The notes: generated from the letters alone by a model not told the origin. 64,000 bases of DNA from an uncultured Ignavibacteria bacterium (GCA_964371625.1 CAYJMP010000001.1:1492601-1556600), one strand, 5' to 3'; shown: positions 646 to 19,216, counted from the stretch's first letter. A program made the numbers and translations.

Positions 646-3432
646 TCAGCGGTACCCGAAGACTTCGGCCCAGATAATGAGAAGGATCAGCCCCAACCCA
701 AGCGAGAGCGCGATCCAGCCAAAGACTTTCATACCCTTGACCACCATAGGCGGCAGAGGCTCGGCCAAGTGCTTCTTGAGTTGACCGGTGCGAACCAACT
801 CCTCGAATTCCCGAGGCCGATCAAGGCGGAATTCCTGAATCGGCACGCGTCCCGTGAAGATGACCGTGTCCATCGGGAATTTGTCCGGACGGAAGTGTGT
901 ATTGAAAAAGTGTACGGTGAAGATGAAACCCACCGCCAATAGCGCTTCATCCGAGTGGATGATGGTCGCCACGTTGATGAACCACCCCGGCAGCAACTTT
1001 GTGAAGAATTCCGGGAACCACAACATCAGCCCGGTCGAGCCGATGATCAGCACGCCCCAGAAGACCGCGAAGTAGTCAAATTTCTCCCAGTACGTCCATC
1101 GCCCATAGCGCGGACGCGGCCCGGCGCCGACAAACCACTTGAGCGTTGCTTTCAAGTCCAGCCAGTCGTTTCGGTTCGGCAGCATCGAATCTTTGTCGAG
1201 CAGGAACTTGAACCACGACTTCCGGCTTTCTTTGCGCCGCTTCCAGACGTCGTGCAGATGCATCGCGAAGTACCCAAAAGTAATCACGGCACACACCCGA
1301 TGCACAAATGACGCCGCCTCAAATCCACCGAACATGCGTGAGAGGAACTGCGCCCAACCCAGGTATGAAAACTTGAGCGTCATCCCCGTCAATGCCAACC
1401 CGAGGAAGCTGATGACCACGAGAATGTGCATTTGCCGCTGACGGCGCGTGAACCGCTTGAACTCCAGTCGATGCGGTTTGGCTTCGATCTTCTGGTGCTG
1501 CCGCATCGCCTGGAACGATCGCGGCATCCACATCAGGGTATGCGTCCCTGCGAGAGTCAACGTGCCAATCAAGAGCGTGCTCATGAACCAAAACGTGTAG
1601 TACAGAATCGGGTACTTGTTCTTGTCGTGATGGGTCGCGTGCGTCAAGTATCCAGCAAAACGCCGGTTCGAGCCGGGGTGGCATTGCGCGCAAGTCTGCA
1701 CGATGTTGGCACGTGATAGGTGCGACGCGGGCTCACTGGGCGGGAGAATGTCGTGCGAGCCGTGGCAATCGTAGCACTTGGCGGCCATGGTGTATCCGAG
1801 CTTGGAGACTTTACCGTGGAACGTCTCGAAATACGACTCGGTCACATCCTTGTGGCACTCGCCGCATTGCGCCGTGATCGCCAGCTTGAACCCCTCGTCG
1901 CCGGTTCGTGTGATCGTGTGCGATGAGTGGCAGTCGATACAGACCGGGAGCTTTTTGTCGCTGGTCGAGACCGCCGTTGAGTGAATGCTCTTCGAGAACT
2001 TCTCAAAGATCCCATTGTGGCACCGCGCGCATGTTTCCGGGACGTTTGTGTGGTTGACGCTCGACTCGGGGTTGTCTTTCGGCAGGACATGATGCGCCGT
2101 GTGGCAATCGGTGCACATGGCGGTCACCACCAGGCCGCTCTCCAAGAGTCCCTTGCCGTGGATGCTCTCTGTGTAGTGCTCGATGATGTCGTGCTGCGTT
2201 CCTGTGTAGCGGACCGCGGCCTTCTTACCCTCTCGGTGGCATTGCGCGCAGAGCTTCGGAACATTGATTGGGAATGTCGCGGACTTCTGATCGCGTCGAT
2301 CCCGGATCCCATGATCGCCGTGGCAGTCTGTGCATGTCGGCGCATTCGGATCGCCGCGATCGACCAGTTGTCCGTGCGTGCTCGTCGCGTACACCGAATC
2401 GACACCGGCATGACACACGCCGCAATCGACACGCGCCGCTACCGTCGCGCAGGGACGCTCGTGTCCCTGGCGCGATGCCCCCGTGTGGCATTGGGCGCAG
2501 GCAACTTTGGATCGGTGATGTATCGACGGCCCGAACTCGGCTGAGTCAACAAACAGCGAGACCGTGTCGGCGCCCCTCACGGTCTGCAAATCCGGCCGGA
2601 CATGACAAGTCATGCATTCATCGTCGGAGATGCTCTCCTCGTACACCAGGCGGCGGGTCCGATGCGGTTCATGGCAATCTATACAGACCGGGATTTTGTG
2701 CGGTTCTTTCTCCCACAACTCACCGCGGATGACCTTGGAATGCACATCCTCGATACGCCCATGACACTTCTGGCAGGTGTTTGGAATATTGCTCGCATGG
2801 ATGCTTGAGGCCGGGTCGGTGTGCGGCAGCACATTGTGCGCCGTGTGGCAGTCGGTGCACACTGCGACGACTGTCAGTCCTTTCTTGTAAAGCCCCTCAC
2901 CATGCGCGCCAAATGAATAGTGCGAGAGAATCGAATCCTGAGGAATGTCGTACGTCTGATGAACTGGAGTTCCTTCCTTATGGCAACGCCCGCACATGAA
3001 CGGAATCTGGAACTTCGTGACTCGCGAATTCGGCGACGTCGGGCCCATGATGTCATGCGAACCGTGGCAATCCCAGCATCGCGGCGCCAGCGGGGCGCCA
3101 GAGTTAACCATCCGGCCGTGCATGCTATTGTTGTAGACTCCGGCGATATCATCATGACAGAGGCCACAATCGACCGGAGCGAGTGGAGCGTCATGGGGAA
3201 ATTCGGCGCCCGCCAGATCGCCGTGGCAGTCTATACACGTGAGTGAACCATGCACCGATGCCTGAAAGCCGGGGAGTAGGAGATTGACCCGCTGACCTGT
3301 TCGCTCTGAGACGAGCGACGGATCCTCATGGCACATCATGCAATCTTCGAGCGACTGCGCCAAGCTGGCTGGCGACATGCAAACCGCCAGTGTCAACACA
3401 CCCAGCGCCACAATCGACAGCCGACGACGCAC
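646..3432 (-). CDS. Giant multiheme c-type cytochrome (19 CXXCH) fused to a C-terminal multi-TM cytochrome b-like domain (CbcL-like architecture)
   Basis: Signal peptide MRRRLSIVALGVLTLAVCMSPASLAQS. The 19 CXXCH motifs are CMMCH, CIDCH, CGLCH, CWDCH, CGRCH, CTDCH, CQKCH, CIDCH, CMTCH, CAQCH, CGVCH, CTDCH, CAQCH, CTDCH, CARCH, CIDCH, CGECH, CYDCH and CAQCH. The C-terminal ~330 aa is hydrophobic with paired His in TM segments (HTLMWMP, MHILVV, HRVCAVITFGYFAMHLHD, IIHSD...FTVHFFNTHF), typical of Ni/Fe-hydrogenase-type diheme cytochrome b. The start overlaps the stop of the upstream gene by 1 nt. Confidence 0.8.
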   Translation of the reverse strand: MRRRLSIVALGVLTLAVCMSPASLAQSLEDCMMCHEDPSLVSERTGQRVNLLLPGFQASVHGSLTCIDCHGDLAGAEFPHDAPLAPVDCGLCHDDIAGVYNNSMHGRMVNSGAPLAPRCWDCHGSHDIMGPTSPNSRVTKFQIPFMCGRCHKEGTPVHQTYDIPQDSILSHYSFGAHGEGLYKKGLTVVAVCTDCHTAHNVLPHTDPASSIHASNIPNTCQKCHGRIEDVHSKVIRGELWEKEPHKIPVCIDCHEPHRTRRLVYEESISDDECMTCHVRPDLQTVRGADTVSLFVDSAEFGPSIHHRSKVACAQCHTGASRQGHERPCATVAARVDCGVCHAGVDSVYATSTHGQLVDRGDPNAPTCTDCHGDHGIRDRRDQKSATFPINVPKLCAQCHREGKKAAVRYTGTQHDIIEHYTESIHGKGLLESGLVVTAMCTDCHTAHHVLPKDNPESSVNHTNVPETCARCHNGIFEKFSKSIHSTAVSTSDKKLPVCIDCHSSHTITRTGDEGFKLAITAQCGECHKDVTESYFETFHGKVSKLGYTMAAKCYDCHGSHDILPPSEPASHLSRANIVQTCAQCHPGSNRRFAGYLTHATHHDKNKYPILYYTFWFMSTLLIGTLTLAGTHTLMWMPRSFQAMRQHQKIEAKPHRLEFKRFTRRQRQMHILVVISFLGLALTGMTLKFSYLGWAQFLSRMFGGFEAASFVHRVCAVITFGYFAMHLHDVWKRRKESRKSWFKFLLDKDSMLPNRNDWLDLKATLKWFVGAGPRPRYGRWTYWEKFDYFAVFWGVLIIGSTGLMLWFPEFFTKLLPGWFINVATIIHSDEALLAVGFIFTVHFFNTHFRPDKFPMDTVIFTGRVPIQEFRLDRPREFEELVRTGQLKKHLAEPLPPMVVKGMKVFGWIALSLGLGLILLIIWAEVFGYR

Positions 3433-5465
3433 TAATGATCTCCGCTCTGTTTGCCGCTCTTGCCGCTGCCGCCCTCGTCGCCTTCATTACTCGGAGTCCG
3501 CCGGTCGGAGAGGTGCTCGGCTTCGTTCGTCGAAGTGGGCGGCAATGCCGGATCGCCGGGATGTTCATGGCGATACACGTCCTCCGGCATCTTCCCCGTG
3601 TACCAGGAGGGATTCATCGGATAAACCGCCGGGCTGAACACGGTTGAATACATGTGCCAGATCAGAATGGCAAGAGTCGCCAGCCAGGCTTCGTAGTAGT
3701 GGATCACCAACATCACATCCAGGAAACCTTTGGGGAAAAACTTGACGGCCAATGACTCTTCCCACATGAAGAGACCCGTGATGGCCATGATTACTGTGCC
3801 CCAGACCAAGGCCCAGTACTCCGCCTTTTCCACGTAACTGAACCGGCCGAATGATGGACGGGAAGCGCTGCGGCCAAGATTGTAGTAAATCATCTGCTTG
3901 AATTCCGAGATATCCGATTTCCCGGGCATCATGTCGATGATGAATTGCCGACCGCGCGGGCGTAACAGGTACCCGACATGCCACATCGCCGTCAGAATGA
4001 AGAGAATGGCGGAGACACGGTGGATCGTGCCGCGAAGCGGGAAACCGCCCTCGCGCCCGAACAATAACTGCACCCACCACGCGTCCGAAAAACGCAGCGC
4101 GAATCCCGTGACTACGAGAACGATAAACGTGACCATGAGAAACGTGTGCTGCCAGACCTCATTGAACGTCATGCGGACAAACTGCTTCCTGAGGTTTACC
4201 AAATGAATCTGTTTGCGCAGATCGATGAGCCAATGCAGGACCATCCCGCCGATCACGACAAAGATGATGACGATGTAGATGTTCTTAATGATCCCGGCGA
4301 TCGGTGTCCGGCTCACTCCGGGCGATCCGTGGATTGGCGCTGTTGCCGCGGCGACGGAGATCCCCGGATGACAATGGCCGCAGGTCTTCTGCAGGTTGCC
4401 TTGATTGATCGAAGACGCCGAGTCGGTTGACGGAAGAATGCGATGGCCGCCGTGACACGAGGCGCAGTTCGCCACTGTCACGTCCCCGGTCTTGCTCTTC
4501 AGGCCATGATAGCTGTCGACAAAAGTCTTCAAACGGCCGGTGGGTATCCCGTATTTCTCATTCAGGCGGGCCGACTCATGACAAGGTGAACAAGTGGCCT
4601 CAGCCACACGGCTGGGGCTCACCGGGGATCGCGGATCCCGCAGCGGCAGAATGCCGTGCTCGCCATGGCAATTGGTGCATACCGGCGAGTCCGTCTCGCC
4701 GCGCTCGGTCAGCTGCCCGTGGATTCCCTCCCAATAGTCCTGCTCGACGTTGCGATGGCATTTTCCACAAGTCTTCGGGATGTTGAAGTGGTTGATCGAG
4801 GACTCAGTGTTCCCAGCGGGCAGTATCCGATGTGCTGTCCCCGCAGTCGAATGGCAATCATTGCAGGTCGCGGCAAGGTGCACGCCCGCAGTCGAGGCAC
4901 GGCCATGGACGCTGCTCTCGAACACTTCTATGGGCCGCTCGAGCGGAATCTTGTGTTTCTTGACCAGATCGAGATTCTCGTGACAGCTAGCGCAGGTGCG
5001 CGGGAGATTGATGGGATTGACCTTCGAGTGACGGTCCGTCGAGGGCAGGATATCATGCGTCCCGTGGCAATCAGCGCAGTTGGGAATATCCTCGCCGACA
5101 CCGACTCGCAGCCGCCCGTGCCATTGGTAAATCGAAGTCTCCTCCTCGTGGCACGACCCGCAGTTGACCTTCGCAAGCTTCTCGGCATGTGGGAAATCAG
5201 AGACGCCAGCGAGGTCAGCATGGCAGCTTGAGCACTCAAAGGTCGCGTGCGCGGATTGACCGACCTGTTCCGCGGTAACGACCAATGAGTCGGCACGTGG
5301 CCCATAGTCCTCAAACATGTCGCGCGTGCCGTGGCACTCAAGACACGTGCTGTTGTCGGCGACCGCGGTTGCGAAGGAACACAGGCTGAACGCGAGGACG
5401 ATTACCAGCCAGATAGCAATGGTCGACCTCGAACTCTGATAACGTGGTAGGACGGCGTTGGACAT
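3432..5465 (-). CDS. Multiheme c-type cytochrome (11 CXXCH) fused to a C-terminal cytochrome b-like membrane domain (second CbcL-like protein)
   Basis: The 11 CXXCH motifs are CLECH, CSSCH, CGSCH, CADCH, CASCH, CNDCH, CGKCH, CTNCH, CSPCH, CASCH and CGHCH. The C-terminus is multi-TM with conserved His (MVLHWLIDL, HTFLMVTF, HRVSAILFILTAMWHVGY, VIHYYEAW...IWHMY). I chose the start at MSNAVLPRYQSS (5465), preceded by GAGAGGGG; the ORF extends to 5525. Confidence 0.75.
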   Translation of the reverse strand: MSNAVLPRYQSSRSTIAIWLVIVLAFSLCSFATAVADNSTCLECHGTRDMFEDYGPRADSLVVTAEQVGQSAHATFECSSCHADLAGVSDFPHAEKLAKVNCGSCHEEETSIYQWHGRLRVGVGEDIPNCADCHGTHDILPSTDRHSKVNPINLPRTCASCHENLDLVKKHKIPLERPIEVFESSVHGRASTAGVHLAATCNDCHSTAGTAHRILPAGNTESSINHFNIPKTCGKCHRNVEQDYWEGIHGQLTERGETDSPVCTNCHGEHGILPLRDPRSPVSPSRVAEATCSPCHESARLNEKYGIPTGRLKTFVDSYHGLKSKTGDVTVANCASCHGGHRILPSTDSASSINQGNLQKTCGHCHPGISVAAATAPIHGSPGVSRTPIAGIIKNIYIVIIFVVIGGMVLHWLIDLRKQIHLVNLRKQFVRMTFNEVWQHTFLMVTFIVLVVTGFALRFSDAWWVQLLFGREGGFPLRGTIHRVSAILFILTAMWHVGYLLRPRGRQFIIDMMPGKSDISEFKQMIYYNLGRSASRPSFGRFSYVEKAEYWALVWGTVIMAITGLFMWEESLAVKFFPKGFLDVMLVIHYYEAWLATLAILIWHMYSTVFSPAVYPMNPSWYTGKMPEDVYRHEHPGDPALPPTSTNEAEHLSDRRTPSNEGDEGGSGKSGKQSGDH

Positions 5466-5539
5466 AGACCCCTCTCGCCTTCGGCTCGCCTGCGGCGCGC
5501 CTGCGGGGAGATCGTCCCCCCACACTCAAATCCTACGTA

Positions 5540-5585
5540 TCAATGTCCGGATTGTCAACGAACCCTCGCCAAGGAATGACAGAGA
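5540..5585 (-). promoter_or_regulatory. Sigma70-like promoter candidate upstream of the 11-heme fusion gene
   Basis: The minus strand reads CGTTGACAATCCGGA-N-TTGA...TAGGAT: TTGACA, a 17-nt spacer, then TAGGAT, about 80 nt upstream of the start. The 15-mer CGTTGACAATCCGGA is identical to the element at 7125..7170. Confidence 0.35.
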
Positions 5586-5632
5586 GCCCGCAAGTCTCGA
5601 TGAATTTTGTCAACTTCTATAGGTCAGAATTG

Positions 5633-7054
5633 TCAACGTTTTGGCAGATCTTCCAGGACCGGAGTCGGATTCTCTTCCTCGTACGCCAACAACTGATGGC
5701 AGGCGCCGCAGTCCTGAGAAATGGTCAGACCCTCCGGCGAAACGTGATTCTCGTCGTGACAGCGGAAACACCCATTCGAGAATGTGTGCCCGATGAAATT
5801 GCGGTACGTCCCCCACACGATTCCCATTTCCGGGAAAATGTTGCGCGACCAGATGCCTGCGAGCACGTCCGCCGCCTGTTCTACCATTTCGCCCTTACTG
5901 CTCGCCAAATCCGGGTACTCAGTGCGATAATAAGTCCGCACTGCAACGCGGATGTCGCGGGCAGCGTCTTCGCGCGAGCCGTACGGCTGCTTCAGAATTC
6001 GGACTCCCTCCCGCTTGATAAACGGCAATTCGGCGGGCAGATCGCCCGTGACCAACGCTTCGTCGACGGCCACCTCGGGCACTTCAAAGGTGTGCGCCGG
6101 GCGATTGTGGCAGTCCATACAATCCATGACGCGACGCGGCATCGTCCGCAGTTCTTCGATAGGGTAAGGGGAATCGCTCGAGACGTACTCGGTCTGGCGT
6201 CCGTCAAGATCAGTCATTTTGATGTACGCAATGGTGTCACGGACTTCATCGAGAGCGACATACTCGACCTTGTTCTTGATGTTCATGTGCCAGTGAATAC
6301 CTGCGGTCCCGCCGAGTTTCGGGCTGCCTCCCCCGGTCTTCATCAGCAGGATGTTCTTGAGCGCCGTGTTGGCCGAGTCTTCCTGGTATCGCGTCTTCAC
6401 AACAAGCTTGAAGCTGTGAAACTTCTCCGGCCAATGACATTGCTCGCAGGTCTCTCGCGCCGGGCGCAGGTTGCGGACTGGCGAAGGGATGGGCTTTTCG
6501 TAGGTATCGAAGGTGACGGCGATCACCTGTCCCAAGCCCGACAGTTTGGATTTCACATACCAGTCCGCGCCCTCGCCAATGTGACACTCAACGCACGCGA
6601 CTCGCGCATGCGGGCCGTTCCGGTACGACGTGAGTTCCGGCTCCATAACCGAGTGGCATACCTCGCCGCAGAAGGTCGTCGTGTCCATGAAGACCACGCT
6701 CTCGTACGCGGTCGCCGCCATGAGCGAGACCACAAGCGCGGCGGTGATCGTCATCACGATGATTCGCCGACGGGTCCGCGTGTCATCGAGGTTGACTTCT
6801 ACACGAATCAGCCCCTTAGGCAATCCTGCCGCGTGGGCGAGCCGGCGTCGTTCCCAGCTCATCCCCACGGGAATCAATACAATGCCCAACAATATGAAGC
6901 CGGGAAGCACGAGAAAGGCGATGACGCCGATATATGGGTTCGATTCGAAACCCAGCCAGGCAGCCACAAGGATGAACAGTATGAACACCGCTGACACGCA
7001 AACGGTCAGCAGACCCGCGAAACTGATCCAGTTGCTTGTCAGTCGTTTAAGCAC
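5633..7054 (-). CDS. Membrane-anchored multiheme c-type cytochrome (6 heme motifs), possible NapC/NirT- or ImcH-like quinol-oxidising inner-membrane cytochrome
   Basis: Two N-terminal TM helices (FAGLLTVCVSAVFILFILVAAWLGF; IGVIAFLVLPGFILLGIVLIPV). Heme motifs are CGEVCH (CX3CH), CVECH, CEQCH, CMDCH, CFRCH and CGACH. The antisense ORF 5543..6994 is judged spurious. Confidence 0.6.
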   Translation of the reverse strand: MLKRLTSNWISFAGLLTVCVSAVFILFILVAAWLGFESNPYIGVIAFLVLPGFILLGIVLIPVGMSWERRRLAHAAGLPKGLIRVEVNLDDTRTRRRIIVMTITAALVVSLMAATAYESVVFMDTTTFCGEVCHSVMEPELTSYRNGPHARVACVECHIGEGADWYVKSKLSGLGQVIAVTFDTYEKPIPSPVRNLRPARETCEQCHWPEKFHSFKLVVKTRYQEDSANTALKNILLMKTGGGSPKLGGTAGIHWHMNIKNKVEYVALDEVRDTIAYIKMTDLDGRQTEYVSSDSPYPIEELRTMPRRVMDCMDCHNRPAHTFEVPEVAVDEALVTGDLPAELPFIKREGVRILKQPYGSREDAARDIRVAVRTYYRTEYPDLASSKGEMVEQAADVLAGIWSRNIFPEMGIVWGTYRNFIGHTFSNGCFRCHDENHVSPEGLTISQDCGACHQLLAYEEENPTPVLEDLPKR

Positions 7055-7124
7055 CTTACTCTCCCTTGCCCTTCATGCATGATGGCCAAGCCGGCCGAAC
7101 CATGTCAGAGGGCTCTAAACCTAT

Positions 7125-7170
7125 CCTCAATCATCCGGATTGTCAACGCCGTCAGTTCAATCACTGACAG
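7125..7170 (-). promoter_or_regulatory. Sigma70-like promoter candidate upstream of the 6-heme membrane cytochrome gene
   Basis: The minus strand reads GGCGTTGACAATCCGGATGATTGAGGATAGGTT: TTGACA, a 17-nt spacer, then TAGGTT, about 80 nt upstream of the start at 7054. Confidence 0.3.
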
Positions 7171-7244
7171 TCAACTGGCATATATGACAAAGCGGGCCGC
7201 CGAAAATCCGGCGGCCCGCTGCGACAGAAGAGTGGTCCGAATCG

Positions 7245-8306
7245 CTATTTCGCAGCCGACTGGGCCAGGTAGTCTAAACTCGCCGCGATGACATCCTCCG
7301 CATAGCGGGGATTGTGCACTCCATCACTCAGATCGTAATGCAAGAGCTTGTAATTCCACACCACGCCTCGATCATTGGCATTCAGTGGCGCGGCGGCACC
7401 TGTCCTGACCGAATCGCCGTTTTCACTCACCCAGCCACGAGCAAAGAGCGCATCACGGAGTTCATCGAGATGCTCATTAAAGGCGTCTTGAACGGCATTG
7501 ACATCGGTCCTCGCCATCTGATCCGCCGAGGATCCCGTCCAGTTTAGGTGGCAACCGGCCTCGCGGCAACCGCTCGAGTTAATTCTGGTGCCCGACGAGT
7601 AATTGATGGCAAAACTGTGGCCACCGGAGATCGCATTGTCCGGAAGATTCGCCATGTGGCAGGTCACGCAGCCGTTGGCGATGGCGTTGTGAGTGGCGTT
7701 GGTCCGATAAACTGCGCCGGGCAGCACCCAAGCGCCCTGCCCAGACAAGACATTTGACTGTGGGCCGTAATGTGTACCCCACCGGTAGCTGGTGATCAGT
7801 GTCGCTTCGTCATCTATCGCGGGCTCCGGGGCACGTGCCTGATGACAAACCGCGCATGTATTACTCTCAGCTTTGTCATAAGACGTACCCACAGTCATCG
7901 CTGTCGCCCCCTCCTTGCGTAGACCGAAATCCCCGAAAGTGTGAGGGGCGTGGCAAGCAAAACAGCCAATGTGAGACGACTCCTCCAACGGGGCGGACTC
8001 ACCCGTTGCGATGTAGGTCTGGTACCCTTCCGTACTGTGGCAGCGGGAGCATGCGGCGCTGCTCTCCGCGGTGCCCCGGACATATGTGTCGCTCAAGTTG
8101 TGCCGTGAGAGGGCAAACTGCGTTTGGATCGTCCGCAGATAGTACACCGAGTCGTCAACAAGTTCGTATTCGTCCGTGTGGCAATTCATACACGTTGCCA
8201 CCCCTGGCGGACCCTGCGGGCCCACGTCGCCCTCGCAACTGGCCAACCCCAAGAGCATCAGCCCGACAGCCAATGGCATGGCCGCCTTCAACCATTGTTT
8301 CATCCC
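7245..8306 (-). CDS. Multiheme c-type cytochrome lipoprotein (5 CXXCH plus one CX4CH), candidate outer-membrane/extracellular component
   Basis: Lipoprotein signal MKQWLKAAMPLAVGLMLLGLASC (lipobox LASC). Motifs are CMNCH, CSRCH, CFACH, CAVCH, CVTCH and CREAGCH. A short collagen-like GPQGPPG stretch follows the lipobox. The ORF extends to 8330; MKQW is the preferred start. Confidence 0.65.
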   Translation of the reverse strand, partial: GMKQWLKAAMPLAVGLMLLGLASCEGDVGPQGPPGVATCMNCHTDEYELVDDSVYYLRTIQTQFALSRHNLSDTYVRGTAESSAACSRCHSTEGYQTYIATGESAPLEESSHIGCFACHAPHTFGDFGLRKEGATAMTVGTSYDKAESNTCAVCHQARAPEPAIDDEATLITSYRWGTHYGPQSNVLSGQGAWVLPGAVYRTNATHNAIANGCVTCHMANLPDNAISGGHSFAINYSSGTRINSSGCREAGCHLNWTGSSADQMARTDVNAVQDAFNEHLDELRDALFARGWVSENGDSVRTGAAAPLNANDRGVVWNYKLLHYDLSDGVHNPRYAEDVIAASLDYLAQSAAK

Positions 8307-8351
8307 GCGCTCCTTTCGATCACTATTCAAAATCCTCGTCTTTCATGACCA

Positions 8352-9470
8352 TCATTCCGGATCCCGTCCGTGACAACGCTCGCAGAAACCGACGCCTGGC
8401 CGACGCGCCCCGCCCTCGTGACAGACATAGCAAACAGCGTTTTCATCGTCGTGCCATGAGCCCTTAACATCGCGCATGAATCCCTCGGGATGTGGCGAGA
8501 TGGTGTTGCGATGGCATCGCAGGCATGTCGGCTCGGCAGCACTCTCTTCGTGGCAGGCCGCGCAAACCTCAATATCGGTGCGCGCAAACTCGGCGTGCCT
8601 GTGGTATTCGAAATCGGCCAAGTCATGCCACACTGGCTTCAGCCGCGAACCATCATTCTCGGGGTTATGGCAGGCATTGCAGAATGTCTGCGGTTCGTGG
8701 CAAACTGCGCAGTCCAAGGTCTTCGCGCGCACGTCACTACCGTGCGTCCAACGGTAGTTCAGATCATGCGCCCGCTGCAGAATCAAAAGGTCGTTTCCCT
8801 CATGGGCTGAAGCCATCGGACCAATTCGATCGACCGGCGCGTCCGCCTTATTCAAGATCGCCAGTCCCAGCGCCGCCCCTTCGTGGCACTCCGAGCAGTA
8901 ACTCTCACGATGACATGTCTCGCACGATTTGGCGTCGCCCCGCGCCTTGATTGAGTGATCCGACACCCAGTCGGCCACGTGATCCTTGGGGCGGAGCAAC
9001 TGTACCTGCGAATGGCACACGTTGCAGTTGTCGTTCATCTCACGTTCGCCGTGGCAATCAGTGCAAATCGACATCGACGGCAGGGCATGACTCGGAGCCT
9101 TCGTCGATTTCTCGACCCCTGCATGACAGCTCGCGCATTCCATCCCCATCGACACGTGCTTGGCGTGGTCGAAGATGAGTTCACGCGCCGGTGTCGGCCA
9201 CGGCGATGAGCCATCGGCCGGGACCGTCCAGTTCATGTCGGCTTGCTCGTGACAGCCGTAGCAGTCTGCAAGAGTGGGCAGCAGTATCGTCACCGAGGTC
9301 GTGGCAGAACTGGCCGCTTTGTGGCAATCGAGGCAGGCGGCGCCAACGTCTTCAATATGCTTTTTATGATCGAAGGGGATCGTGGGAGTCTTCGTGCCCG
9401 AGGCGTATGCCGAAAAGAAGATTGCTCCCGCCGCCATCACCAAACCCACTATGGTTGCGCGCCGCTTCAT
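8352..9470 (-). CDS. Periplasmic multiheme c-type cytochrome (13 CXXCH), MtrA/OmaB-like candidate
   Basis: Signal peptide MKRRATIVGLVMAAGAIFFSAYASG. The 13 motifs are CLDCH, CYGCH, CASCH, CTDCH, CNVCH, CETCH, CSECH, CAVCH, CNACH, CAACH, CLRCH, CYVCH and CERCH. The ATG overlaps the stop of the upstream beta-barrel gene (ATGA-type coupling at 9470). Confidence 0.75.
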   Translation of the reverse strand: MKRRATIVGLVMAAGAIFFSAYASGTKTPTIPFDHKKHIEDVGAACLDCHKAASSATTSVTILLPTLADCYGCHEQADMNWTVPADGSSPWPTPARELIFDHAKHVSMGMECASCHAGVEKSTKAPSHALPSMSICTDCHGEREMNDNCNVCHSQVQLLRPKDHVADWVSDHSIKARGDAKSCETCHRESYCSECHEGAALGLAILNKADAPVDRIGPMASAHEGNDLLILQRAHDLNYRWTHGSDVRAKTLDCAVCHEPQTFCNACHNPENDGSRLKPVWHDLADFEYHRHAEFARTDIEVCAACHEESAAEPTCLRCHRNTISPHPEGFMRDVKGSWHDDENAVCYVCHEGGARRPGVGFCERCHGRDPE

Positions 9471-10771
9471 TATTGCCCACCCCCCTCGGTCGATCCCTGC
9501 CCACCCAAGCGGTTGAAGAACCACCAGGAGAATCGCGCGATCACGCGGAAATCCGATTCGTCTCCGGCGAACGACGCCATGGTCTTCAGGTCTTGAGTCA
9601 GATATTGCAGCTCCAGATCCCACGATGCTTGCGGCATCCACTGCCACCGCACCCCGGCCCACGCCGAGGCTTCGGTATTGGATTCTTCCTGATCCTCGAA
9701 GAGTTCGTAAGTCGAATAGTGCGAGCCGCCGCGCAATGTCCAGCGTGGGTTGAGCGGATACATGGCTTCCCCGGACAACGACACGGTCGATCCGGAGGCT
9801 CCCGCCTTGGTGTGGAGCATGAGTGAGAAATACTTGTGTGAGGCCCCGAGATCAAAACGTTGGGCACTTTCATCAGCGATGTCCACCAAGGCCCCGCCGA
9901 CTGTCAATGTCCAGGTCTCGTTCACGCGGTAGTGCAGTCGCAATCGTCCTTCGCGGAACTCGGTATCACCAAACACCCAAAAGATCGAATTGTAAGCGAG
10001 GCCGGGACGACGATAGCGAAATTGCCCTTGCACGCTGAGCTTCGAAGTCGCATCCCAGCGCGCCGAAATATGCGCCCGCTGGATCCGTGAGCGCGGTTGA
10101 TCATAGAGGAGATTTCCATAGAGAGAACCGAACGCCGGGAACGACCTGCGCCAATCGAGTCCGAAATTACGGGACGCGAGATCATCCACCTCCGTCGACC
10201 CATAACTGCGCTGAATTCGGCGCTCGGCAAAGGTCAGAAACATGGTTCCCATCATCGGGCATCGTCTGCCGACTCGTAGACCGAACGCATGCCCCTCATC
10301 GAAATCTCTCGGCTTGAATCGTCCGTCTTCCGGAGCGAGTGATCCGATGTATCCGCCAAGCTCAAATTCTTTCCAGAAGCGCAAATCGGCAGAGCCGCCG
10401 TCAATAGCTAACGAGCCATTCGGCCAACTCATCCGGTGGCGTCCAACAGTCAGATCGAGGACGTTCGCCAGCTTCTTCCAGCGCGCATAGAGGTCGTAGA
10501 CACGGTAATCGTCGACATTGTCTCCCTGACTGCGCGAGTCCAAACGGCCGCGCATGGTCGTCGCGATTTCCAAGTCCTGGCCGCCGATCCGGCCGAGACG
10601 CAAGCCCAATGTCCCGGAGTTCTGCCAATGCCGTGTGTCGGTGCTGTCGAGCTCACTGCGCTCCCACAAATAGCTGGAAACACCGACTCGACCCGTGAGC
10701 ACAGCCGCGTTGGCTGATATCGAAATCCCGAGGAGAATGACCAGAGCAAGACTAACAGGTATACGGTTCAT
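9470..10771 (-). CDS. Predicted outer-membrane beta-barrel protein, candidate porin of a porin-cytochrome conduit
   Basis: Signal peptide MNRIPVSLALVILLGISISANA, then ~410 aa rich in alternating aromatic/Gly beta-strand-like segments (YRVYDLYARW, FGLRVG, LYGNLLYD, WTLTVGGALV, RVIARFSWWFF). It is first in the operon, immediately upstream of and coupled to the 13-heme cytochrome. No homology search was possible; the call rests on position and composition. Confidence 0.45.
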   Translation of the reverse strand: MNRIPVSLALVILLGISISANAAVLTGRVGVSSYLWERSELDSTDTRHWQNSGTLGLRLGRIGGQDLEIATTMRGRLDSRSQGDNVDDYRVYDLYARWKKLANVLDLTVGRHRMSWPNGSLAIDGGSADLRFWKEFELGGYIGSLAPEDGRFKPRDFDEGHAFGLRVGRRCPMMGTMFLTFAERRIQRSYGSTEVDDLASRNFGLDWRRSFPAFGSLYGNLLYDQPRSRIQRAHISARWDATSKLSVQGQFRYRRPGLAYNSIFWVFGDTEFREGRLRLHYRVNETWTLTVGGALVDIADESAQRFDLGASHKYFSLMLHTKAGASGSTVSLSGEAMYPLNPRWTLRGGSHYSTYELFEDQEESNTEASAWAGVRWQWMPQASWDLELQYLTQDLKTMASFAGDESDFRVIARFSWWFFNRLGGQGSTEGGGQ

Positions 10772-11202
10772 CGGGCTCCCCCACGATTTGACGACCCTTC
10801 CATCCACCGATAGTATCGGCGGGTCATTTCGATCCGAGAACCATGACCGCGATCACGGTACATTTGTTGACATCCGCTGGCAAGGAAGAACGCCACAAAC
10901 GTCAACTGTTTTTGACAACATAAGCCGAAAGATTGCCGTGCGCTGGGCCCCTACGAGGCGAGTGGCCACTCACTTGCGCGTGCCCCTAAATACGACAGAC
11001 TAAGTAGTATTTGCAACATCGGACTCACGACGCCCCGCATCGGCATCTCGAGAAAGCCGGCTGACCAATGCTCAGCGGCACGAGGACAATCCGCACATCT
11101 TAGTCCATGTGACTCAACAAATTCGCCGCCGCGCCGATACTGAATAATGGACCTCAGGCGCCCCGGGCGCAGTCCCCGTTACGCCTGAATCGAGCGAGCG
11201 TC

Positions 11203-12747
11203 ATGACACTTACTGACACCGGACACATCGTCTTGAAAGCCGTCGAAGTCTTCGGCGGTCTGCCCGATGACATCCTCGACGTGATTCGTTCCTACATGGA
11301 AGAGCGCACGACTCCGGCGGGAATGGTGCTGTTCGAAGAAGGCCAGAAGGCCGAGGATGTCTTCTTCCTCCGCAAGGGCACGGTCCAAATCATCAAGACG
11401 CAGGATGGGAGGGCCGAGGTCTTGGCGCGTCGCGGACGGGGTGAGGTCATTGGCGAGATGGCGCTCTTAGACGCCTCACCACGGTTTGCCACCGCCATCT
11501 GTGAAACCGAGTGCGACCTGTTCGTCCTCTCACGCAGTCGTTTCTATGATCTCCTCCCCCAGCATCCGAGCATAGCGGAACGCATCATGCGAGTCATGAG
11601 TCAGCGTGTGCGCGAAGCCGATGTCAAACGCCTTGAGGGACTGGAAGCCAAGACACGTGAGTTGGAAGCGGCACGGTCGCGGCTGGAAGCTTCTTTGACA
11701 TACCGCGATCGCGTTCTCGCGAACGCGCCATATCCGATTATCGTCACCGACGTCGTCAATCGGGTCCAACTTGCCAACAACGCTGCGCAGCGTACATTCG
11801 GCAATCCGAAGAAGCGCATCCTGTGGGAATGGATCATTCCGAAAAACCCCGATCTCAAAGCCGAATTGGAATCACGGCTCCAACGCTCCTCCAGCTGGAA
11901 GACCGAGCTGGAATTGACGGGCCCCGAAGACGCGCAACTGTTCTGCAAACTCGTGGTGGTACCCATTGCCGACACCGGGGATGGCCGGTCGGCGCGTTTA
12001 TGGATCTTCGAGGACCTGACGGAGATTCGCGCGCTGCAATCCCGGGCGCTGGACCGCGAGCGGCTGGCGCTCAAAGGCGAAATGGCCGGTGAAATCGCCC
12101 ACGAACTCAACAACTACCTCGCGGTGCTGTTGGGAAATGTTGAACTCCTCCCCATGTTCCTGGGGAATTCACTGCCGCCGGCCGCGCAAAAGTCGCTGAG
12201 CAGCATTCAACACGCCCTCGGGCAAGTCACGCTATTCACCGACAGCCTGTTGCGCTCGCGCCATCCCGCAGGACAACTCACAGAAATCAACTTGAATGAG
12301 TTCCTTGAAAATCAGATCGCCTTTCTGCGTCCGCAAAAGCGGCTAAAGAAAGCTGTGATCGAAACGCGTTGGGGCGAGAATATCCCGGCGTTCGAATGCG
12401 ATGCTTCGGGACTTCAACAAGTCTTCTACAATCTCCTCCTGAATGCTGCGGACTCTCTGGCCGCTGCGGGCCCGGACTGCCATTCCATTTTCGTCACCAC
12501 GAACTTCGACAACGCCACCCATCACGTTGAGTTGATCGTCGAAGACAATGGGCCCGGCATCCCGCCGGAAGTGCAATCGCGGATGTTCAGAGAGCGTATC
12601 TCAACCAAACCGACCGGGCATGGCTTCGGCTTAATGACCATTGCACGGATCATCCAGGAACACGGTGGCACGATTACGCCCGGTTCGCGTGAAGGCGGCG
12701 GCGCCCGATTCATTATTCGTCTTCCGCTTAAACCAGCCCACTCTTAA
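11203..12747 (+). CDS. Sensor histidine kinase with N-terminal cyclic-nucleotide-binding (CAP/Crp-type cNMP) domain
   Basis: The N-terminus (LFEEGQKAEDVFFLRKGTVQII...GRGEVIGEMALLDASPRFATAICETECDLFVL) matches the cNMP-binding beta-roll signature (GE..ALL....R.A.A). A coiled-coil follows. The HisKA box is EMAGEIAHELNNYLAVLLGNVELL. The HATPase_c region is IVEDNGPGIP...GHGFGLMTIARIIQEHGGTI. Confidence 0.8.
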   Translation: MTLTDTGHIVLKAVEVFGGLPDDILDVIRSYMEERTTPAGMVLFEEGQKAEDVFFLRKGTVQIIKTQDGRAEVLARRGRGEVIGEMALLDASPRFATAICETECDLFVLSRSRFYDLLPQHPSIAERIMRVMSQRVREADVKRLEGLEAKTRELEAARSRLEASLTYRDRVLANAPYPIIVTDVVNRVQLANNAAQRTFGNPKKRILWEWIIPKNPDLKAELESRLQRSSSWKTELELTGPEDAQLFCKLVVVPIADTGDGRSARLWIFEDLTEIRALQSRALDRERLALKGEMAGEIAHELNNYLAVLLGNVELLPMFLGNSLPPAAQKSLSSIQHALGQVTLFTDSLLRSRHPAGQLTEINLNEFLENQIAFLRPQKRLKKAVIETRWGENIPAFECDASGLQQVFYNLLLNAADSLAAAGPDCHSIFVTTNFDNATHHVELIVEDNGPGIPPEVQSRMFRERISTKPTGHGFGLMTIARIIQEHGGTITPGSREGGGARFIIRLPLKPAHS

Positions 12748-12762
12748 GAGGATGATGGCCAC

Positions 12763-13107
12763 ATGGACCTGATGTGGTTCCTCTTTCTCGCGCATCTGAC
12801 CGGGGACTATGCGCTCCAGTCTGACCGCATGGCGGCAGAAAAGGGTCGCAGACTGTCGCAACTGACTCGGCATGTGGTGATCTATACACTCTGTATTGGC
12901 GCCACGTTGTGGCTCTACGCTGCGGCAACTTCACAGTTCAAATTCTATTCCTGGCACGCGGCCGGAATGCTGGCCCCACTTCTGGCGTTGCACTGGATTC
13001 AGGATTACATCAAGGGCCACTACCTCGCCCACAGCAAGCAAGCGTACTACGCCGACCAAGTCTTGCACTTGGCCCAACTGTACATCATCCGGCTGCTTCT
13101 GATATGA
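12763..13107 (+). CDS. Small hydrophobic membrane protein (DUF3307-like), translationally coupled to the downstream cyclase
   Basis: 114 aa with 3-4 predicted TM segments (MDLMWFLFLAHLTGDYALQ..., VVIYTLCIGATLWLYAAA, LAPLLALHWIQDYI). Its stop TGA at 13105..13107 overlaps the ATG at 13104 of the next gene. Confidence 0.4.
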   Translation: MDLMWFLFLAHLTGDYALQSDRMAAEKGRRLSQLTRHVVIYTLCIGATLWLYAAATSQFKFYSWHAAGMLAPLLALHWIQDYIKGHYLAHSKQAYYADQVLHLAQLYIIRLLLI

Positions 13108-17093: not shown

Positions 17094-17544
17094 AGCAGTG
17101 CCAGAGTATGACGCTGGCCATCACAAGAAACCCGCACACCATGAGAACGGAGCTTGGATAAATGACCCAAGCCGCCCACCGCTCCCCGATCGCGATCAGC
17201 CAAAGTGAGCCGAAGGTCGACAGCAGGGAAAGTAAAGTCTCTGTGGCCCAAAGGCTCTTCCATCTTGCCAACACGTCAGTGAACGCAAAGAGCACCGCCA
17301 CTGCAAAGAACAGCATGCCCATCCCCAGAAGATGGGTGTGCACAATCTCGAGCATCTCCCCCGTCGACTTTCCGAACTTCAGTTCTTCTTCATTGCCTTG
17401 GTAGTGATCTGAGATTCCTTCGGATCGCATCCCCGTGTTGTGCGCGATGAACGCGAGGCCCGCGGCGTACCCCAAAAGACTCACGAGGATGAACACTGCG
17501 ATCGGCATGCGCAGGTATGACGGCAGCGTTCGGAGTCGCACCAT
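17065..17544 (-). CDS. Small 4-TM membrane protein with conserved intramembrane His (possible heme-b/electron-transfer membrane partner of the flavinylated protein)
   Basis: MVRLRTLPSYLRMPIAVFILVSLLGYAAGLAFIAHNTG...LEIVHTHLLGMGMLFFAVAVLF...SLLSTFGSLWLIAIGERWAAWVIY...VLMVCGFLVMASVILWHCF. The start M (MVRLRT) overlaps the stop of the upstream FMN-binding gene; the alternative start 17559 (MGEPI) is possible. Confidence 0.4.
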   Translation of the reverse strand: MVRLRTLPSYLRMPIAVFILVSLLGYAAGLAFIAHNTGMRSEGISDHYQGNEEELKFGKSTGEMLEIVHTHLLGMGMLFFAVAVLFAFTDVLARWKSLWATETLLSLLSTFGSLWLIAIGERWAAWVIYPSSVLMVCGFLVMASVILWHCFTPEARPGN

Positions 17545-18134
17545 TATTGGTTCTCCCACTTTTCCGCCCGTACTTGCTCGGCCAGGGCCAGCGCCTTGCG
17601 CACACCCGCATTCAAGGCGTTAACCGAGATCGTGGCGCCGGTGATGTTGATGATATCACGATTGATACGGATCGGGTCGGCCAGAGACTTTCCCCGGTAC
17701 TGCTTGAGGAATCTCGTCTGCCGCACGTCTCCCCCACGGCTCTCACGGTACACCAGCACGCGCACATCGACGATGTGCAATGCCGTATCCACTCCCGCCA
17801 TAAACGTGATCGGTCGATATTTTCCCTGCTCATCGGCGACCACGGCCGTGCCGAGCAACTTTCCTGCGGAAAACACATCGATATAAACGAATGCGCTGTC
17901 GCGCAATTCGCAGCCAAGCCGAGCGCGAAGTTTCGCGCACATGACCGAGTCCACCACGATGACCTGAGATAATGCCGAGTCTGCATCGGGAAAAATCTCG
18001 GCTAGGGCCGCGTCTTCTGAAGTGAGCACCTCGACTGCCCCGATTTCATCTTCCGTCGGGATTTCCTGCGCTCCGCTGGACACCAAATGCCCGAACACGA
18101 GGAATACGGATGAGAACAGGCGCAAGGTAGTCAT
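17544..18134 (-). CDS. Secreted FMN-binding domain protein (FMN_bind-type, substrate for covalent flavinylation)
   Basis: Signal peptide MTTLRLFSSVFLVFGHLVSSGAQE. The C-terminal motif DIINITGATISVNALNAGVRKAL matches the FMN_bind S/TGAT flavinylation motif (NosR/RnfG/PplA-like). ATGA overlap with the upstream ApbE gene. Confidence 0.6.
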   Translation of the reverse strand: MTTLRLFSSVFLVFGHLVSSGAQEIPTEDEIGAVEVLTSEDAALAEIFPDADSALSQVIVVDSVMCAKLRARLGCELRDSAFVYIDVFSAGKLLGTAVVADEQGKYRPITFMAGVDTALHIVDVRVLVYRESRGGDVRQTRFLKQYRGKSLADPIRINRDIINITGATISVNALNAGVRKALALAEQVRAEKWENQ

Positions 18135-19210: not shown

Positions 19211-19216
19211 CGTCGC

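Follow-up and report, generated by a model that had tools for sequence, protein, structure and literature searches.

[quoted passage not shown]

Six co-directional genes in a 64,000-nucleotide stretch of DNA (hereafter the window) probably encode a modular electron conduit that links the quinone pool of the inner membrane with the cell surface. According to our model, three alternative quinol/quinone oxidoreductases, one ImcH-type and two CbcL-type, would trade electrons between menaquinol and their own periplasmic hemes, and the periplasm would be bridged by long heme domains or by soluble carriers. Electrons would then cross the outer membrane (OM) along a 13-heme cytochrome, predicted to be nearly all bis-His, that sits inside a 22-strand barrel, and a lipid-anchored hexaheme cytochrome of NrfA/OcwA fold on a short Gly-X-Y tether, probably with one open-coordination heme, would serve as the outer terminal module. 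Our inferences concern where in the cell the proteins sit, whether they form a complex and whether the lipoprotein is surface-exposed, as well as the quinol-oxidase role, the direction of flow and the acceptor. We favour outward over inward flow; if so, the cell would respire an acceptor outside the cell or at its surface, for example Fe(III), humics, electrodes, partner cells or another oxidant. Parallels of this three-part logic have been published for Geobacter ExtEFG/ExtABCD (PMC6148476) and for Pcc clusters, including that of I. album (PMC4245776).

Gene layout and integrity of the cluster

ORF calls in the window place the six genes on the minus strand across positions 646-10771, in one direction and in the order given by a first-pass annotation of this DNA, which had also counted about 55 heme sites; our motif count over the six genes is 53 CXXCH, one CX3CH and one CX4CH, 55 in total. 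Given how common Cys and His typically are, we estimate that chance would yield well below one CXXCH in ~2,800 residues. The features are:

9470..10771, minus strand: predicted OM beta-barrel, 433 aa, Sec signal peptide, 0 heme motifs
8352..9470, minus strand: periplasmic 13-heme cytochrome c, 372 aa, signal peptide, 13 CXXCH
7245..8303 (ORF to 8330), minus strand: lipoprotein cytochrome, 352 aa, 5 CXXCH and 1 CX4CH
5633..7054, minus strand: ImcH-type inner-membrane cytochrome, 473 aa, 5 CXXCH and 1 CX3CH
3432..5465 (ORF to 5525), minus strand: CbcL-type c/b fusion, 11-heme, 677 aa, 11 CXXCH
646..3432, minus strand: CbcL-type c/b fusion, 19-heme, 928 aa, 19 CXXCH
10772..11202, no strand: divergent intergenic region between the barrel and kinase genes, presumed promoter/regulatory region
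11203-12747, plus strand: cNMP-binding PAS histidine kinase gene, across the divergent intergenic region from the barrel gene
13104-17093 (gene call in L001; mechanical ORF 12909-17093): adenylate cyclase-TPR gene

The 13-heme gene starts at the ATG at 9470, with a signal peptide beginning MKRRATIVGLV..., and the same call is made on an identical public contig; a mechanical ORF at 8352-9662 was rejected for this gene because it runs into the barrel gene. The tight or overlapping spacing described at first pass holds for the barrel and 13-heme genes and for the 11-heme and 19-heme fusion genes, each pair overlapping by 1 nt, as well as for the 13-heme and lipoprotein genes, which are 48 nt apart, but not around the ImcH-like gene, which is flanked by gaps of 190 nt and 167 nt. 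Since each of these gaps carries a promoter-like match, the six genes may form up to three transcription units, perhaps not one operon. The divergent intergenic region, in which a repeat search found no strong repeats, is presumed to be a promoter and regulatory region, and the kinase and adenylate cyclase-TPR genes beyond it are syntenic in a related locus (L002).

Identical sequences of all six proteins are found on 31-34 public contigs, one of them 3.33 Mb long, and L002 carries a 72-86% identical copy with equal gene order and syntenic flanks; assembly chimerism, a concern raised at first pass, is therefore excluded. The GC content is 55-61%.

Inner-membrane cytochromes and the direction of electron flow

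The 5633..7054 product has three N-terminal TM helices, a CX3CH directly after TM3 and then five CXXCH, with a Pfam Cytochrom_NNT match of 36.8 bits (cutoff 24.1), a sequence pattern that fits the published ImcH architecture (PMC4251993, PMC6295460); the protein is presumed to be a quinol oxidase. It shares with ImcH (GSU3259) the three helices, the CX3CH straight after them and a NapC/NirT-homologous region, and its five further CXXCH lie within the published range of 5-9 (PMC6295460). The absence of the C-terminal motif leaves it one heme site short of Geobacter ImcH and of the Ignavibacteria orthologs; the latter show the complete seven-motif ImcH pattern. The protein has more than 7,900 homologs and is 47% identical to Acidobacteria proteins. 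Its gene adjoins the porin-cytochrome module, whereas Geobacter imcH is monocistronic (PMC4251993), and the 2018 survey found no mtrAB/mtoAB genes beside imcH (PMC6295460).

In the 11-heme fusion the periplasmic c domain is followed, at the C terminus, by an FdnI/HydC-like membrane domain of the dihemic cytochrome b kind, matching Pfam Ni_hydr_CYTB at 43.8 bits (cutoff 30.1) and TIGR01583 (formate dehydrogenase gamma) at E 1.3e-15 with a score below cutoff. The 19-heme fusion scores 29.3 bits for Ni_hydr_CYTB, just under the same cutoff, and has an extra C-terminal TM helix beyond the cytochrome b domain. Five His are invariant in each membrane domain (H440, H482, H496, H589 and H604 in the 11-heme fusion; H669, H711, H725, H826 and H841 in the 19-heme fusion), including two pairs 14-15 residues apart, one pair in or beside predicted TM helix 2, as would be expected for two b hemes. 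Both fusions are CbcL-like, with intact b-heme histidines. Unlike Geobacter CbcL, which has nine c-heme sites, they carry 11 and 19 and are two tandem paralogs. An internal repeat of the 19-heme fusion is 41% identical (E 3e-54), and its residues 264-895 align to residues 31-658 of the 11-heme fusion (E 3e-94); it is a paralog derived from the 11-heme type, in which an 8-heme module was duplicated to give 19. The common build, an N-terminal multiheme c domain followed by an FdnI/HydC-type b domain with conserved His, is that of CbcL/MtoC/MtrH (PMC6295460). The lipobox, N-terminal membrane helices and C-terminal cytochrome b domains are all present, and the ImcH/CbcL-type resemblance noted at first pass is borne out by the ImcH architecture and the intact b-heme His of both fusions.

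Nothing in the sequence fixes the direction of flow, as had been recognised from the outset. With the hardware unchanged, electrons could run inward: the donor would be extracellular Fe(II), reduced minerals, a cathode or a syntrophic partner, and the c/b fusions would work as quinone reductases that pass the electrons on to the quinone pool. We regard this as unlikely, even though CbcL/MtoC-type proteins are found in metal reducers as well as metal oxidisers, CbcL/MtoC/MtrH homologs of Fe(II) oxidisers are thought to be bidirectional (PMC6295460), Fe(II) oxidation was the role preferred by Castelle et al. for another Mtr-like cluster, that of Zixibacteria RBG-1 (PMC3903129), and FeGenie-based surveys assign both oxidation and reduction genes to Zixibacteria (PMC8478452). 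To date, quinol oxidation in reducers is the only role to which ImcH-type proteins have been linked (PMC6295460), and the likeness of the presumed surface module is to the terminal reductases OcwA and OmhA. As Castelle et al. argued (PMC3903129), a surface lipoprotein cytochrome is usually missing from the known oxidiser conduits (MtoAB, PioAB), and the window has a presumed one; the scanned window ORFs contain no Cyc2, Rieske/cytochrome b or RuBisCO-type context. In line with a conduit, Ignavibacteria with Geobacter-like PCCs are enriched on anodes (PMC7399161). The step to metal respiration, suggested at first pass, is unsafe, since I. album, which has a cluster of the homologous type, was tested on Fe(III) and Mn(IV) oxides and failed to grow on either (PMC4245776).

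Outer-membrane barrel, 13-heme cytochrome and lipoprotein

The predicted structure of the barrel product has 22 strands (pLDDT 81.8), and its structural neighbours are OM barrels only, among them 22-strand TonB-receptor barrels (~350 residues aligned) and MtrB, in line with the beta-barrel first proposed. The barrel shows no family-specific similarity to MtrB/PioB, and neither a profile search nor the predicted structure revealed a plug or other transporter domain. The barrel gene is adjacent to, and co-directional with, a 13/14-heme gene in 61/61 informative related loci, at an estimated median gap of 65 nt (a 1-nt overlap in the window). We presume that the predicted barrel is a sheath around the 13-heme cytochrome.

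All 13 CXXCH motifs of that cytochrome, and likewise 12 non-motif His, are invariant across 58 homologs, and a motif scan of the six genes found no CXXCK in the cluster cytochromes, which indicates a wire-type bis-His cytochrome and, presumably, a trans-OM heme wire. A 14th heme site is found in 51 of the 58 homologs, where the window protein has W81. Assignment of the protein to MtrA/DmsE was rejected (TIGR03508, 18 bits against a cutoff of 192). The window barrel has 22 predicted strands, as compared with 26 in the MtrB structure (PDB 6R2Q), and the window wire has 13 hemes against the 10 of Shewanella MtrCAB, MtoAB and PioAB. Both window values fall inside the published Pcc ranges of 18-22 strands and 5-14 periplasmic hemes (PMC4245776). 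The Geobacter sulfurreducens ExtEFG/ExtABCD conduits, which consist of an OM barrel predicted to have 18-21 strands, a dodecaheme cytochrome in the periplasm and a lipoprotein cytochrome with five hemes (PMC6148476), have the three-part composition in common with the window; in Geobacter, ImcH and CbcL are encoded at loci apart from the conduit, whereas in the window they are contiguous with it.

In the 7245..8303 product, a lipobox (LASC) is followed by a short collagen-like G-X-Y tether and a hexaheme core whose structure and profile comparisons support an NrfA/OcwA fold and membership of the NrfA superfamily, with OcwA and OmhA, not periplasmic nitrite reductases, as closest relatives. An MtrC-type decaheme identity was rejected: at 30.0 bits the domain match does no more than equal its threshold, and structural searching prefers OcwA and NrfA. 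OcwA (Thermincola potens, 6I5B) and OmhA (Carboxydothermus ferrireducens, 6QVM) are proven cell-surface terminal reductases of this superfamily (PMC6703420); they share with the window protein a C-terminal three-helix bundle with a GVHNP motif and a His motif (GPHHGPQ versus GVHH-PQ) that in OcwA/OmhA lies over the open heme. Unlike them, the window lipoprotein has Tyr for the second His of the HH pair, six heme sites instead of nine or 11 and no N-terminal c554-like module, and it combines lipid and Gly-X-Y tether anchoring in a diderm, whereas OcwA/OmhA belong to a Gram-positive wall/S-layer. H178, which is invariant, lines up with the distal, non-bonding His of OcwA/OmhA (PMC9250108), and besides it only five invariant His are available for six heme sites; one heme probably has open coordination. 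We presume the lipoprotein to be the surface terminal module.

The probable open-coordination heme leaves room for catalysis on a small molecule, and the lipoprotein could instead be a catalytic NrfA-like reductase, not a mineral-contact cytochrome; supplied with electrons by the cluster, that heme would reduce a soluble or colloidal substrate (nitrite, hydroxylamine, NO, polysulfide/S0 or selenite/tellurite, for example), either on the cell surface or within the periplasm. The protein is homologous to NrfA, ONR and OcwA in fold and profile, some family members have weak Pfam Cytochrom_C552 matches and a JGI 'nitrite reductase' label, and the H178 alignment and His count are compatible with such a role. 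OcwA slowly reduces nitrite and hydroxylamine (PMC6703420), I. album does not respire metal oxides (PMC4245776), and selenite/tellurite have been linked to Geobacter ExtHIJKL (PMC5877670). We nevertheless consider this reading improbable, given that the CXXCK active-site motif is absent, the window protein does not reach E<0.01 for Cytochrom_C552, and the protein it matches best in structure is a reductase of metals and electrodes at the cell surface. A periplasmic small-molecule reductase would not need a dedicated OM barrel and 13-heme wire, and the lipid anchor, tether and obligate barrel pairing suit a surface module. The concern that the cytochromes might be generic NrfA/HAO-type reductases is answered in part: CXXCK is missing and a profile search of the cluster proteins found no HAO signature, yet the lipoprotein does fall in the NrfA superfamily, nearest to OcwA/OmhA.

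Conservation across lineages

The named homologs closest to the cluster proteins belong to Candidatus Zixibacteria, in which porin-cytochrome clusters have been known since 2013 and Mtr/Pcc-like clusters with Fe-cycling potential repeatedly reported (PMC3903129, PMC7005843, PMC8478452, PMC9769843); the suggestion at first pass that the clade may be undescribed, or the conduit assembled independently, is not supported. Dozens of Ignavibacteria MAGs contain clusters homologous to the core of barrel, 13/14-heme cytochrome and lipoprotein. Inner-membrane modules lie <=10 kb away in most of 35 full-length loci (CbcL-type in 30/35, ImcH-type in 16/35) and still co-localise where gene order is rearranged between Zixibacteria-like and Ignavibacteria loci. 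Conserved synteny ties the modules together in two phylum-level lineages and, together with the 61/61 pairing, this lends good inferential support to the full inner-membrane-to-surface conduit envisaged at first pass. That the six genes are mere neighbours, the barrel an ordinary porin or transporter and the cytochromes parts of separate periplasmic respiratory chains, is highly implausible: generic porins and TonB-receptor barrels match the barrel as well as, or better than, MtrB, and the two sizeable gaps (190 and 167 nt) hold promoter-like sites, but the invariable barrel/13-14-heme pairing, the start/stop overlap in the window, the barrel's lack of a plug or other transporter domain and the retention of the whole module set across lineages with barrels only ~25% identical argue against it.

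The OM core also matches the published I. album Pcc, IALB_1840-1837, which speaks against its novelty, the likeness being drawn solely from architecture and MAG homologs; that cluster comprises a periplasmic cytochrome (IALB_1840), a porin (IALB_1839), a protein of 14 hemes and 400 aa (IALB_1838) and an OM cytochrome with an atypical motif (IALB_1837) (PMC4245776). Ignavibacteria loci found with the window barrel (~25% identity, tblastn E 1e-14 to 5e-32) run in the order 4-heme gene, barrel, 14-heme gene (~412 aa), 6-heme gene and, in many cases, a lipoprotein gene homologous to that of the window (25-31% identity), with ImcH-type and CbcL-type genes upstream in the same orientation; their 14-heme protein is 32-38% identical to the window 13-heme protein (E ~1e-65). 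Set against this type, the window has no counterpart of the 4-heme and 6-heme (IALB_1840/1837-like) genes and no 14th heme site, its order is inverted, with the inner-membrane genes downstream of the barrel, and its 19-heme unit is fused to a cytochrome b domain where Ignavibacteria have separate genes. New here are the predicted NrfA/OcwA fold of the lipoprotein, shared with surface reductases of Gram-positives, its probable open-coordination heme and short collagen-like tether, and the 8-heme module duplication behind the 19-heme fusion.

As regards the T9SS proposed for the lineage, T9SS-type C-terminal sorting domains are present on two nearby proteins (45056-46405 and 46509-52649), where the CHU_C profile scores 28.4 bits, above its cutoff, and Por_Secre_tail ~24 bits, just below.

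Gene content and integrity of the cluster

An ORF scan of the window revealed six successive long ORFs on the minus strand within 646-10807, and translation with motif counting, read from the 19-heme cytochrome c/b fusion to the barrel, gave 19, 11, 5 (plus one CX3CH), 5 (plus one CX4CH), 13 and 0 CXXCH motifs. These amount to 53 canonical and two atypical motifs, or 55 c-type heme sites, bearing out the six-gene cluster of about 55 heme sites described in the first-pass annotation; no CXXCK motif was counted in any of the six cluster proteins. True gene boundaries were taken from the gene calls for a public contig of identical sequence (L001).

Table. Genes of the cluster, from gene calls on the identical contig
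9470-10771, minus strand: barrel
8352-9470, minus strand: 13-heme cytochrome
7245-8303, minus strand: lipoprotein cytochrome
5633-7054, minus strand: NapC-like (ImcH-type) cytochrome
3432-5465, minus strand: 11-heme c/b fusion
646-3432, minus strand: 19-heme c/b fusion

Two of the gene junctions, including that between the barrel and 13-heme genes, overlap by 1 nt, and one is a 48-nt gap. The NapC-like gene is flanked by gaps of 190 and 167 nt, both containing promoter-like matches from a scan that is uninformative for an FCB-type organism, and therefore a single operon is not established. Two mechanical ORFs were discarded as artefacts unsupported by the gene calls on the identical contig: a 483-aa antisense ORF over the ImcH-like gene (5543-6994, plus strand) and a version of the 13-heme ORF lengthened upstream by 64 codons, into the barrel gene (8352-9662, minus strand).

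The six proteins are sequence-identical on 31-34 public contigs, as long as 3.33 Mb, ENA ERZ13692951 being one example of the 100%-identical population, and their nearest named homologs, at 50-68% identity, come from Candidatus Zixibacteria MAGs, which supports assignment to Zixibacteria. In the related public locus L002 (CAZQIZ010000003.1), the barrel and c/b fusions are 72-86% identical to those of the window, the six-gene order is unchanged, and both flanks are kept. These comprise, upstream of the barrel gene, a histidine kinase, DUF3307, adenylate cyclase, FMN_bind, ApbE and an unknown gene; the 19-heme fusion gene is followed by a gene homologous to the 97-552 ORF, an ORF that overlaps an L001 gene called as a methyltransferase. 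Together, the identical public contigs and the order and flanks of L002 rule out assembly chimerism.

The L002 record is labelled "uncultured Ignavibacteria bacterium", and that of another related locus, L004 (DATKYL010000282.1), "Acidobacteriota bacterium". The cluster proteins of both are far nearer to those of the window and of named Zixibacteria MAGs than to those of Ignavibacteria (barrels 72% and 55% identical, respectively; non-barrel proteins of L002 up to 86%), and the labels are probably unreliable, reflecting loose naming or mis-binning.

Protein modules of the cluster

The ImcH family is defined by three N-terminal TM helices, an atypical CX3CH motif beside the TM domain, 5-9 CX2CH motifs and NapC/NirT homology (PMC6295460). 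A further mark of the family is an identity of at least about 31% to Geobacter ImcH (GSU3259). The 473-aa NapC-like protein of the window shows every feature of the published ImcH architecture (PMC4251993, PMC6295460), with TM helices at residues 12-30, 42-60 and 98-116, a CX3CH motif at 129 right after the third helix, five CXXCH motifs, and NapC/NirT homology (PF03264, 36.8 bits, above the 24.1 cutoff). The protein has more than 7,900 homologs, and the top-ranking 120 belong to Zixibacteria and Acidobacteria. In Ignavibacteria, orthologs from the same cluster show a full seven-motif pattern; the final motif is missing from the window protein.

Both c/b fusions combine a multiheme c domain, with 11 and 19 hemes, and an FdnI/HydC-type cytochrome b, as do CbcL, MtoC and MtrH, from which they differ in heme number. 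Against PF01292, the 11-heme fusion scored 43.8 bits, above the cutoff, and the 19-heme fusion 29.3 bits, 0.8 bit below it. Five His are invariant across 39 cytochrome b domains, including two pairs 14-15 residues apart, a pattern consistent with two b hemes per fusion, which would add four b hemes to the 55 c-type sites. The two fusions are paralogs (E 3e-94), and the larger contains a tandem duplication of a ~248-aa 8-heme module (residues ~56-261 versus 300-509, 41% identity, E 3e-54). In Ignavibacteria (L021, L034), one gene encodes the 19-heme unit and a separate, adjacent gene its cytochrome b.

Structure prediction for the barrel product (433 aa) yielded a modelled 22-strand barrel (mean pLDDT 81.8), preceded by a signal peptide. 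Its family comprises 488 representatives of 50% clusters, every one annotated as hypothetical, from Zixibacteria, Ignavibacteria/Bacteroidota, Fidelibacterota and KSB1. Membership of the MtrB/PioB family was rejected, with scores of 18.2 bits against a threshold of 23 for PF11854 and 17.8 against 240 for TIGR03509, and only 4 of 24 barrel-family members matched the MtrB/PioB model, weakly. MtrB/PioB barrels are ~650-700 aa long and the MtrB structure has 26 strands, as opposed to the 433 aa and 22 strands found here.

At all 61 loci with downstream DNA present, a homolog of the 13-heme cytochrome is the next co-directional gene after the barrel. Among 58 homologs, each of the 13 motifs and another 12 His are invariant, the pattern that a heme wire with bis-His ligation, as opposed to an enzyme, should show; a 14th heme site, present in most relatives, has been lost in the window. 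Placement among the MtrA/DmsE/MtoA decahemes was rejected (TIGR03508, 18 bits against 192.2; 13 hemes versus 10), and the protein finds its best sequence matches in the PDB among ActA-like and c7-like cytochromes. When the barrel, ImcH-like, 13-heme and 19-heme sequences were searched against the PDB, weak generic matches alone were returned (TonB receptor, NrfH, ActA/c7, NrfB). A catalytic role of the large cytochromes as in NrfA or HAO was likewise dismissed, since they show no CXXCK, no family match and a near-complete set of conserved distal His. The barrel and 13/14-heme core is common to the window, Ignavibacteria, KSB1 and Fidelibacterota, and, judged from sequence, points to a putative FCB-wide conduit type that is sequence-distinct from Mtr.

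The lipoprotein cytochrome has a LASC lipobox, five CXXCH motifs and one CX4CH. In an alignment of its family, the lipobox Cys is nearly invariant and is followed by Gly-X-Y repeats; in the window, four triplets lie directly after the lipidated Cys, at residues 23-37 (CEGDVGPQGPPGVA), and some homologs, for example P0348, have much longer collagen-like runs with a Pfam Collagen match. A trimeric stalk formed by these repeats is conceivable. The acidic residues found at +2 and +4 from the Cys bear a loose resemblance to the export signals of surface lipoproteins in Bacteroidota.

The same alignment shows five invariant CXXCH motifs, a sixth C..CH with variable spacing, and six invariant non-motif His. 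A single-sequence PDB search with the lipoprotein gave no match, and its kinship with OcwA and NrfA was visible only by family profile and fold search, the profile giving sequence-level matches to OcwA (9e-10), NrfA (4e-9) and OmhA (6e-7). In these alignments, motifs 3-6 correspond to NrfA hemes 2-5, and a C-terminal GVHNP helix motif is shared. By fold and profile, the homology to NrfA is real, and the lipoprotein is closest to proven extracellular reductases. [quoted passage not shown] An invariant His, H178, is part of a consensus, GPHHGPQ, that reads THYGPQ in the window and aligns with GVHH-PQ of OmhA. In OcwA and OmhA, the histidines of a conserved His-His motif sit over the open-coordination heme without bonding to it (Costa 2019, Soares 2022), and we infer that H178 is the counterpart of this motif. 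The lipoprotein is probably a hexaheme cytochrome with five bis-His hemes and one penta-coordinated heme, at motif 2 (C85).

Identity as an NrfA nitrite reductase was rejected, there being no CXXCK active-site motif and no match to PF02335 (Cytochrom_C552) at E<0.01. The first-pass annotation had listed generic nitrite- or sulfite-type reductases, for example with NrfA or HAO active-site motifs, among the findings that would speak against a conduit. This applies in part, the lipoprotein being NrfA-type, but it lacks the CXXCK motif, is lipid-anchored and tethered, is obligately paired with the barrel, and has proven extracellular reductases as its nearest kin.

Linkage, electron flow and relation to known systems

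At Ignavibacteria loci, co-directional genes run in the order CbcL-type(s), ImcH-type, 11-heme, 4-heme, barrel, 14-heme, 6-heme and lipoprotein homolog. Of the 35 loci whose flanks are complete, 30 have a CbcL-type gene within 10 kb and 16 a strong ImcH-type match. The part set is kept despite this reshuffled order, in lineages with barrels only ~25% identical, and it is mainly this persistence which argues that the parts work together. A second cluster variant was observed in three Zixibacteria MAGs (L005, L007, L010; barrels 50-55% identical), in which 4-heme and 9-heme (1-2 hydrophobic segments) genes precede the barrel and a 13/14-heme gene follows it; neither a lipoprotein homolog nor a strong ImcH-type match was detected in their flanks.

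The best-supported model is a conduit that would connect the quinol pool to the cell surface through three alternative inner-membrane entry/exit modules. If these behave like ImcH and CbcL of Geobacter, they may differ in the redox potential to which each is tuned. The trans-envelope conduit originally proposed appears largely right as to function. Outward electron flow is favoured because ImcH has so far been implicated in quinol oxidation only, because the lipoprotein resembles surface reductases, and because a putative surface cytochrome is present. Inward flow through the same conduit is a live alternative, as is reduction of a small molecule at the probable open heme of the lipoprotein.

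The cluster agrees with the description of porin-cytochrome (Pcc) systems (Shi et al. 2014: 18-22 strands beside 5-14 hemes) in its 22 strands and 13 CXXCH motifs, and the outer-membrane lipoprotein cytochrome of such systems, often with atypical motifs, has its equivalent in the LASC and CX4CH protein, whose surface location is putative. A further mark of Pcc clusters is BLAST similarity (E<0.01) to OmaB/OmbB/OmcB of Geobacter or to an accepted member such as IALB_1839/1838; for the window, the sequence link is indirect, via Ignavibacteria MAG homologs with the IALB architecture, and the Geobacter and I. album proteins were compared by their published descriptions. The I. album Pcc cluster, with periplasmic cytochrome IALB_1840, porin IALB_1839, the 14-heme, 400-aa IALB_1838 and outer-membrane cytochrome IALB_1837 with an atypical motif, has the architecture of the Ignavibacteria loci found here, and I. 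album uses neither Fe(III) nor Mn(IV) oxides (PMC4245776). Geobacter ExtEFG and ExtABCD have a like composition of barrel, dodecaheme and pentaheme lipoprotein (PMC6148476).

Mtr-like or Pcc-like clusters were proposed in Zixibacteria in 2013 (PMC3903129), 2020 (PMC7005843), 2021 (PMC8478452) and 2022 (PMC9769843), and Ignavibacteria have Geobacter-like PCCs and are enriched on anodes (PMC7399161). Because of these reports, the kind of system and its occurrence in Zixibacteria are already known, and the earlier suggestion of a possibly undescribed clade or an independently assembled conduit was overstated, Pcc clusters having been reported for both Zixibacteria and I. album. A 2026 preprint on EET in peat deals with Acidobacteriota and Verrucomicrobiota and does not bear on the window cluster.

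Several details of the cluster deserve follow-up though the kind of system is known. A literature search of incomplete coverage found no description of an NrfA/OcwA fold in a Pcc-associated lipoprotein, of a collagen-like tether on a Pcc lipoprotein, of a 19-heme duplicated CbcL-type fusion, or of contiguous ImcH-type, two CbcL-type and Pcc genes, and these four features may be new. Zhong & Shi 2018 did not find mtrAB/mtoAB genes beside imcH (PMC6295460).

A tentative reading, which we regard as rather doubtful, is that of a complete EET "supercluster" of an FCB-superphylum type, whose outer module would be a minimal hexaheme lipoprotein of NrfA/OcwA fold, with a collagen-like tether and one open heme, not of the MtrC/OmcB type. 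If true, this would for the first time connect the OcwA/OmhA class of Gram-positive surface reductases with a porin-cytochrome conduit of diderms, and might explain why I. album has the cluster without metal-oxide respiration, the real acceptor being something else.

If the NrfA/OcwA fold of the lipoprotein is confirmed, diderms, like monoderms, would have turned an ancient catalytic scaffold into a surface outlet for electrons, and automatic Fe(III)-reduction readings of such clusters would call for caution. Zixibacteria, as yet uncultured, abound in aquifers, sediments and the deep subsurface and are routinely scored as "iron cyclers" by HMM hits alone; the locus offers a concrete, complete parts list, with three putative modules for the quinol pool, a putative wire for the outer membrane and a putative cytochrome for the surface.

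Neighbouring genes

Table. Features outside the cluster
11203-12747, plus strand: histidine kinase, cNMP-binding, PAS; divergent from the barrel gene
12763-13107, plus strand: DUF3307 protein; divergent from the barrel gene
13104-17093, plus strand (mapped L001 call; mechanical ORF 12909-17093): adenylate/guanylate cyclase with TPR repeats; divergent from the barrel gene
17065-20380, minus strand: extracytosolic flavinylation module, co-oriented with the cluster and 6.3 kb upstream of it, made up of the next four entries
about 17065-17544, minus strand: small Aq_1264_TM membrane protein
17544-18134, minus strand: FMN_bind protein
18131-19045, minus strand: ApbE flavin transferase
19217-20380/20443, minus strand: unknown 387/408-aa protein, no Pfam match
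32423-34825, minus strand: molybdopterin oxidoreductase catalytic subunit, 800 aa
45056-46405, minus strand: secreted protein, T9SS-type C-terminal sorting domain (FlgD_ig / CHU_C / Por_Secre_tail)
46509-52649, minus strand: secreted protein, 2046 aa, HYR domains, T9SS-type sorting domain (FlgD_ig / CHU_C / Por_Secre_tail)
58541-58898, plus strand: tmRNA gene, tag AYDNSYALAA

The kinase, DUF3307 and cyclase genes all adjoin the cluster in L002 too, suggesting that cyclic nucleotides regulate the conduit; a response regulator was not seen near these three genes (11203-17093), and the intergenic region upstream of the barrel gene contains no convincing repeats. The flavinylation module also keeps its synteny in L002 and could serve the conduit as a redox partner that works through flavins; tight binding of FMN is a property of OcwA. 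A DtxR/Fe_dep_repress regulator is located past this module. No cluster cytochrome carries a T9SS-type sorting domain, and the presence of such domains in the two secreted proteins nearby fits an FCB-group organism.
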